NCBI RefSeq assembly: GCF_055900595.2
Contig: NZ_CM148325.1
Reading direction: 5' to 3' (one strand)
DNA: 64,000 bases
Shown here: positions 49,989-50,762 of the stretch, one piece after another
Position numbering within the stretch: position 1 is the stretch's first letter
Layout of the letters: every line of letters starts with the position of its first letter
The notes under the pieces: generated by a model
Database searches by the model: none
The model's input: only the letters and a program-made list of their open reading frames with translations
Told to the model about the DNA's origin: nothing
Made by a program: the position numbers and the translations under genes

Positions 49989-50762
49989 ATGAATTCATTC
50001 GAGCGAAGGAATAAGATCATCCAATTAGTGAATGAACAGGGAACCGTGCTTGTTCAGGATCTGGCGGGAGTTTTTGCTGCCTCGGAAGCGACAATCCGTG
50101 CCGATTTGCGCTTTCTCGAACAAAAAGGCGTGGTTACGCGCTTTCATGGCGGTGCGGCGAAAATAATGTCCGGTAATAGTGAAACCGAGACCCAGGAAGT
50201 CGGGTTTAAAGAGCGATTTCAGCTCGCCAGCGCGCCGAAAAACAGAATAGCGCAGGCGGCAGTCAAAATGATCCACGAAGGGATGACCGTTATTCTCGAC
50301 AGCGGAAGTACGACAATGCTTATCGCCGAAGGTTTAATGACCGCCAAAAATATCACGGTGATTACCAACAGTCTCCCAGCGGCGTTTGCCCTTTCCGAAA
50401 ATAAAGACATTACTCTGGTCGTCTGTGGTGGCACGGTCCGCCATAAAACGCGCTCGATGCATGGCTCCATTGCCGAGCGTTCATTGCAGGATATTAATGC
50501 CGATTTAATGTTTGTCGGTGCTGATGGTATTGATGCGGTTAATGGTATTACGACCTTTAATGAAGGTTATTCGATTAGCGGTGCGATGGTCACAGCCGCT
50601 AATAAAGTGATTGCCGTTCTCGATTCATCGAAATTTAACCGTCGCGGTTTTAATCAGGTACTGCCAATCGAAAAAATTGATATTATTATTACTGATGATG
50701 CCGTGTCAGAGGTGGATAAACTGGCATTGCAGAAAACACGGGTGAAATTAATTACGGTGTAG
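49989..50762 (+). CDS. gatR: DeoR-family galactitol repressor GatR, intact
   Basis: 257 aa from MNSFERRNKIIQLVNEQGTVLVQDLAG...; continuous frame, no insertion element (K-12 MG1655 gatR is IS-disrupted by my recollection). Confidence 0.85.
   Translation: MNSFERRNKIIQLVNEQGTVLVQDLAGVFAASEATIRADLRFLEQKGVVTRFHGGAAKIMSGNSETETQEVGFKERFQLASAPKNRIAQAAVKMIHEGMTVILDSGSTTMLIAEGLMTAKNITVITNSLPAAFALSENKDITLVVCGGTVRHKTRSMHGSIAERSLQDINADLMFVGADGIDAVNGITTFNEGYSISGAMVTAANKVIAVLDSSKFNRRGFNQVLPIEKIDIIITDDAVSEVDKLALQKTRVKLITV

Follow-up and report, generated by a model that had tools for sequence, protein, structure and literature searches.

Gene Content of the gat Locus

The DNA analyzed here, hereafter the window, is a stretch of 64,000 nucleotides of E. 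coli contig NZ_CM148325.1. Within it, the six genes of the gatYZABCD operon are followed by gatR on the same strand and then by the convergent gene yegS. This order, gatYZABCD-gatR-yegS, is common to the window, K-12 MG1655, E. coli HS, and M160133. The features of the locus, in window coordinates, are as follows:

44400-44513, + strand: gatY promoter/regulatory region, the presumed target of GatR (promoter scan)
44514-49883, + strand: gatYZABCD operon, six intact frames (ORF list)
44514-45368, + strand: gatY
45397-46659, + strand: gatZ
46669-47121, + strand: gatA
47152-47436, + strand: gatB
47440-48795, + strand: gatC
48843-49883, + strand: gatD
49884-49988, + strand: gatD-gatR spacer, 105 bp (inverted-repeat and promoter scans, genome comparison)
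49989-50762, + strand: gatR coding sequence, 257 codons and a TAG stop (ORF list, translation, RefSeq annotation of the M160133 copy)
50004-50162, + strand: HTH_DeoR domain, N-terminal helix-turn-helix (Pfam PF08220, E = 1.3e-16, 60.5 bits against a cut-off of 21)
50235-50696, + strand: DeoRC, C-terminal sensor domain for effector binding and oligomerisation (Pfam PF00455, E = 2.5e-51)
50285-50287, + strand: unoccupied GAC triplet, the IS3E target site (the BLAST alignment to K-12 falls into two blocks that share just these 3 bases)
50774-50807, unstranded: single degenerate REP palindrome (inverted repeat with 16-nt arms and a 2-nt gap, 88% complementary)
50844-51743, - strand: yegS (lipid kinase), a 299-aa ORF and the convergent neighbour 3' of gatR (annotated as yegS in M160133, K-12, and HS)

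We observed no internal stop or frameshift in gatR, either in the ORF list or in the translation of the whole frame. The six-frame ORF list also contains an upstream in-frame ATG at 49983, the first of the two, which gives a frame of 259 aa (49983-50762, + strand). The start at 49989 is the one chosen by RefSeq in M160133, whose sequence over 49900-50850 matches the window at 100% and whose gatR copy is annotated as WP_001295426.1. Counted from the start at 49983, the PF08220 match covers residues 8-60, with a score over the gathering cut-off, and the PF00455 match covers residues 85-238 of 259. Both Pfam matches in the gatR product are far beyond chance. Furthermore, the sole solved structure matched by sequence is 7L6L, the C-terminal domain of E. 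coli DeoR (E = 1.9e-11). With both domains in place and a size of ~250 aa, the product can be assigned to the DeoR family of regulators. These results bear out an earlier note on this DNA, which had described an uninterrupted DeoR-type frame of 257 aa.

Assignment of the Gene as gatR

Could the protein be a DeoR-family paralogue with another main target, for instance an AgaR- or SrlR-like regulator, rather than the gat repressor? Its top NCBIfam matches are indeed AgaR (NF040755, 232.9 bits) and SrlR (NF007753, 226.3 bits), but both scores fall under the curated cut-offs of 260 and 350 bits, respectively, and membership in either equivalog was rejected. No GatR-specific NCBIfam model exists, so that it is identity and synteny, not a curated family model, that carry the assignment. 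The product is identical at 257 of 257 residues to the joined fragments of K-12 b4498, and GatR of E. coli HS is the same RefSeq protein, WP_001295426.1, so that the window and HS differ in this gene only at the nucleotide level. The gene also occupies its expected position at the gat locus, and K-12 genetics tie gatR to gat expression. Together, identity and synteny effectively refute the paralogue reading, and its probability seems to us negligible. On the same two grounds, sequence identity and locus position, the gene can be assigned as gatR, orthologous to the E. coli gat repressor.

AgaR, the repressor of the N-acetylgalactosamine/galactosamine regulon, and SrlR/GutR, the glucitol repressor, are the closest DeoR-family paralogues. 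Like GatR, they show the two-domain architecture over their full length, and each governs a PTS sugar or sugar-alcohol operon; unlike the window GatR, they lie at other genomic loci and belong to families whose equivalog cut-offs the window protein does not reach. E. coli GatR itself (b4498; WP_001295426.1 in HS and many strains), first described by Nobelmann & Lengeler 1996 as cited in PMC9189660, resembles the window copy in its protein, its position between gatD and yegS, its upstream spacer, and its downstream REP site. The GatR of Salmonella enterica serovar Typhimurium, like that of E. coli, represses gat promoters through its helix-turn-helix, the deletion of which ends repression (PMC7972205). 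On the other hand, it belongs to another species and another gene cluster, and it is likened to the window GatR by description.

The IS3E Insertion Site Is Empty

In MG1655, gatR (b4498) carries a pseudogene annotation, with an IS3E element between its two fragments, in agreement with the earlier note, in which the K-12 gene is split by an insertion element. The element is flanked in K-12 by a 3-bp target duplication, GTC at both ends, which reads GAC on the gatR strand. IS3E entered codon 100 of the gene, at the GAC triplet that follows nucleotide 299. In the window, the corresponding site (50285-50287) is empty and the sequence is colinear across it, which rejects a K-12-type gatR::IS3E pseudogene.

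The alignment with the joined K-12 fragments (774 nt), a check that the earlier note had suggested, showed 16 differences from the window, all at third codon positions and all synonymous, and not a single amino acid change. The IS3E element and these 16 substitutions are what set the MG1655 gene apart from that of the window. In the same K-12 comparison, on the other hand, the neighbouring genes carry 3-16 amino acid changes each. Strong purifying selection therefore acts on GatR.

The note had further held that the insertion makes the MG1655 gat operon constitutive, and several papers say the same (PMC5850726, PMC3045373, PMC9189660, PMC5094792). The high or constitutive gat expression of MG1655 is blamed on the gatR insertion in PMC3045373 and PMC5094792, and the same attribution is made in PMC9189660, which cites Nobelmann & Lengeler 1996. 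The experiments of Sousa et al. are the most direct: putting the HS gatR in place of the MG1655 pseudogene produced a strain with a regulated gat operon, and, in mice, fresh IS insertions in the restored gatR gave rise to constitutive mutants again (PMC5850726).

A further difference lies in gatC (47440-48795), which is an intact frame of 451 aa and 1356 nt in the window and a pseudogene of 1358 nt in MG1655. Thus, counting gatR::IS3E, MG1655 has two lesions at the gat locus, not one.

Intact gatR Is the Norm in E. coli

How common is an intact gatR? Querying 5426 complete E. coli genomes with the gatR region (49900-50850), we found a match in 5109. At least 80% of the region was present in one place in 4756 of the 5426 genomes, a proportion that is an upper bound on intact copies, since the coverage statistic merges pieces less than ~975 bp apart and is blind to frameshifts. 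In a sample of 40 rows taken across the ranking, 36 were single full-length pieces. The exact 100-bp gatR/IS3E junction of K-12 was present in 344 of the 5426 genomes, laboratory strains among them, and accounts for nearly all of the split copies; by subtraction, at most about 9 genomes carry another large disruption or a partial deletion of gatR.

These results show that an intact gatR is the norm and that K-12 is the exception. The contrast with K-12 implied in the earlier note consequently flatters the finding: the intact gene is real but ordinary, and its biology has been known since 1996 and was later revisited by experiment. Large gatR disruptions in complete genomes belong almost entirely to the K-12 laboratory lineage, though the IS insertions seen during mouse colonisation appear within days.

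Three genomes with lesions at or near gatR deserve separate mention. In PCP06238 (L007 5287-5984), an IS1 stands in place of the genes from fbaB through gatR, which is natural IS-associated damage. In RMDEC465 (L008 1-1484), gatD is truncated by an IS4 next to an intact gatR variant. BS-01 (L006 1889-2324, 437 bp) was considered as a second natural gatR insertion and rejected, as it shows the K-12 IS3E site, K-12-identical flanks, and a CT-rich low-complexity filler; this is most likely a K-12-like genome in which IS3E was misassembled, despite the label of broiler isolate.

Integrity of the gat Operon

The genes gatY, gatZ, gatA, gatB, and gatD have their K-12 lengths, with 3-16 amino acid differences and no internal stops. 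It is conceivable that one of these differences inactivates an enzyme or transporter of the pathway, in which case the repressor would work on a dead pathway, the strain would be galactitol-negative, and regulation would be moot. The loss of gat is common, both naturally and experimentally, as illustrated by the IS1-associated deletion of fbaB-gatR in PCP06238, the IS4 in gatD of RMDEC465, and the gatC pseudogene of MG1655, and gat-negative mutants sweep in the mouse gut (PMC5850726). In the window, however, all six gat frames are full length and free of stops, and the amino acid differences are of the size expected for a nucleotide divergence of ~4%. In addition, the strictly synonymous divergence of gatR argues for purifying selection on the system. 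We therefore regard a dead pathway as exceedingly unlikely.

The Spacer between gatD and gatR

Over its 105 bp, the gatD-gatR spacer shows no difference between the window, K-12, and HS, whereas the coding sequences beside it diverge by 2-7%. The chance of finding no spacer differences from K-12 alone is ~0.01 at the local coding divergence and ~0.001 at the third-position rate of gatR. Of 5103 E. coli genomes, 5024 have a spacer with 99% identity or more; for the gatR region, only 23 genomes reach this level.

Directly 3' of the gatD stop, the inverted-repeat search found a perfect 9-bp G+C-rich hairpin at 49889-49911. A scan of 49700-51000 found no intrinsic terminator and, in the spacer, no promoter above threshold; Rfam has no match in the spacer either. 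By eye, a -35 element TTCACC (49932-49937) and a -10 element TACACT (49955-49960) can be aligned, which together agree with the consensus at 8 of 12 positions and would make a weak promoter. The spacer presumably contains gatR's own weak promoter and its 5' leader.

Might the spacer do more than this? It may carry an extra, so far undescribed component of gat regulation, either an autoregulatory operator for GatR in combination with a folded 3' terminus of the gat mRNA, or an sRNA from the gatD 3'-UTR. We consider this rather unlikely; if true, the element would add a new layer to the regulation of gat.

The gatY Promoter Region

The promoter scan predicted a -35 element TCGACA (44449-44454) and a -10 element CATTAT (44473-44478) upstream of gatY. 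The final ~108 bp 5' of the gatY ATG contain only two differences from K-12 and HS, and the DNA just upstream of this block is variable. The first difference is a T>C substitution in the predicted -35 element (TCGACA compared with TCGATA in K-12/HS), which brings it closer to the consensus and is common to M160133. The second is an A>G substitution 7 nt before the gatY ATG, near the ribosome-binding site. Furthermore, a TGTGA motif is present at 44436-44440, 5' of the predicted promoter, in what would be the position of a class II CRP site. In K-12, gat transcription is strongly cAMP-dependent and needs cAMP-CRP (PMC4512719).

We looked for a GatR operator common to the upstream regions of gatY and gatR and found only trivial 10-12-mers shared with 1-2 mismatches. 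A pair of imperfect inverted arms of ~22 nt (44417-44438 and 44493-44515; ATTTTCAYAT..TGTCGTTT) flanks the predicted gatY promoter and overlaps the gatY start codon, and the conserved block of the promoter region starts at about the left arm. We do not put this pair forward as a GatR operator, the best self-complementary score having been reached by 136 of 1000 dinucleotide shuffles. The arms bracketing the promoter are thus, at most, weak operator candidates.

These observations bear on the question of whether regulation could be lost or altered behind an intact frame. Either poor expression of gatR or promoter substitutions that weaken repression would leave the operon partly constitutive. 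In favour of such a change, the gatY block carries two substitutions compared with K-12/HS, the one bringing the -35 element nearer to the consensus and the other lying just before the ATG, and the candidate operator in the gatY promoter does not stand out from shuffled sequence. On the other hand, the gatD-gatR spacer, which necessarily holds the expression signals of gatR, shows no difference from that of HS, a strain with a working gene; the protein is identical as well; and the -35 change is found also in M160133. Altered regulation is therefore, in our judgment, very unlikely, and an intact regulatory system is the reading that we retain.

The REP Palindrome Downstream of gatR

The REP palindrome begins 12 nt past the gatR TAG stop, in the 81 bp that separate gatR from the convergent yegS. 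Its hairpin has a predicted energy of -25.4 kcal/mol (z = -3.3). A canonical REP query, run across the window with up to 3 mismatches allowed, found five copies elsewhere (0 expected by chance) and missed the copy at 50774-50807, which by direct visual comparison has 4 mismatches to the 30-nt consensus (26/30 match). The copy at the same site in K-12/HS has 2 mismatches (28/30 match), with a compensatory C>T / G>A stem pair; compared with it, the window REP carries two extra substitutions. The Rfam model naRNA4 (RF02564) scores 33 bits on the element (E = 8e-4), below its gathering score of 59.5, the model spanning a REP pair where only one REP is present here.

The element shares with the REP/BIME sequences of E. 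coli an imperfect palindrome with GCCGGAT...ATCCGGC arms and an extragenic location between two convergent genes. Unlike BIMEs, it is single and unpaired, and it has diverged from the consensus and falls under the naRNA4 cut-off. Taken together, the palindrome is best read as one somewhat decayed REP, and the REP element that the earlier note had placed straight after gatR is thus confirmed as a 16+16-nt imperfect palindrome. The MG1655 record contains no REP feature across ~80 kb, so that the absence of one at the gatR site of that record is uninformative.

Proposed Regulation of gat by GatR

The window very probably contains a wild-type, functional gatR encoding the DeoR-family repressor of the adjacent galactitol PTS/catabolic operon gatYZABCD. 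We infer that gat expression in this strain would be galactitol-inducible, as the earlier note had held probable, and CRP-dependent. This is well supported, because the frame is intact, because GatR does not differ from the HS protein, which regulates gat when placed in MG1655, and because the operon and its promoter are intact and closely match their K-12 and HS counterparts.

How would the system operate? Without galactitol, GatR would bind at or near the gatY promoter, and transcription would be blocked. When galactitol is available, it would enter through the GatABC transport system and then become phosphorylated. A phosphorylated intermediate of the pathway would then free the repressor; by analogy with DeoR-family regulators, the inducer is plausibly a phosphorylated sugar or pathway intermediate such as galactitol-1-phosphate or tagatose-6-phosphate. 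In Salmonella, the gat promoters are assumed to be activated not only by galactitol but also by tagatose (PMC7972205). Full expression of gat would also require cAMP-CRP. At the other end of the gene, judging from what is generally known of REP elements, the REP hairpin most likely separates the converging transcripts of gatR and yegS, as a terminator or a barrier at their 3' ends.

Consequently, users of this genome should expect gat to behave as in wild E. coli, that is, to be repressed, galactitol-inducible, and CRP-dependent. In MG1655, on the other hand, gat is expressed constitutively, at a cost in the mouse gut.

Lineage and Other Features of the Window

The BLAST identity of the window to K-12 is ~96% throughout. 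Identity of 99% or more over both 36500-44200 and 49900-50850 is found in only eight complete genomes; the window represents a rare lineage of ordinary E. coli.

The similarity to M160133 changes within the window. Over 44302-62850, the two are 99.8% identical, whereas over 37810-44259 the identity is 96.0%, and M160133 lacks some of the REP cluster that lies between fbaB and gatY (44259-44302). The pattern suggests a recombination breakpoint within this cluster.

Six matches above the Rfam gathering score were recorded in the window:

458-581: STnc490 sRNA
6605-6685: Peptidase-S11 RNA motif
7628-7705: naRNA4 (REP/BIME)
36277-36373: TPP riboswitch upstream of thiM
44228-44298: naRNA4 (REP/BIME)
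52895-52980, - strand: CyaR

Several segments also differ in content from K-12. At 21207-22855, ~1.6 kb belonging to a 623-aa ORF stands in place of ~14 kb of K-12 that runs from yehF through most of yehQ. Between rcnR and thiM (33986-36274) lies an additional 2.3 kb, with ORFs of 104 and 115 aa that have signal-peptide-like N-termini. The yegR region is divergent at 51867-52854, and the P2 remnant ogrK/yegZ is absent there. Finally, the segment at 54515-56119 is absent from K-12, and M160133 annotates a HEAT-repeat protein in it.
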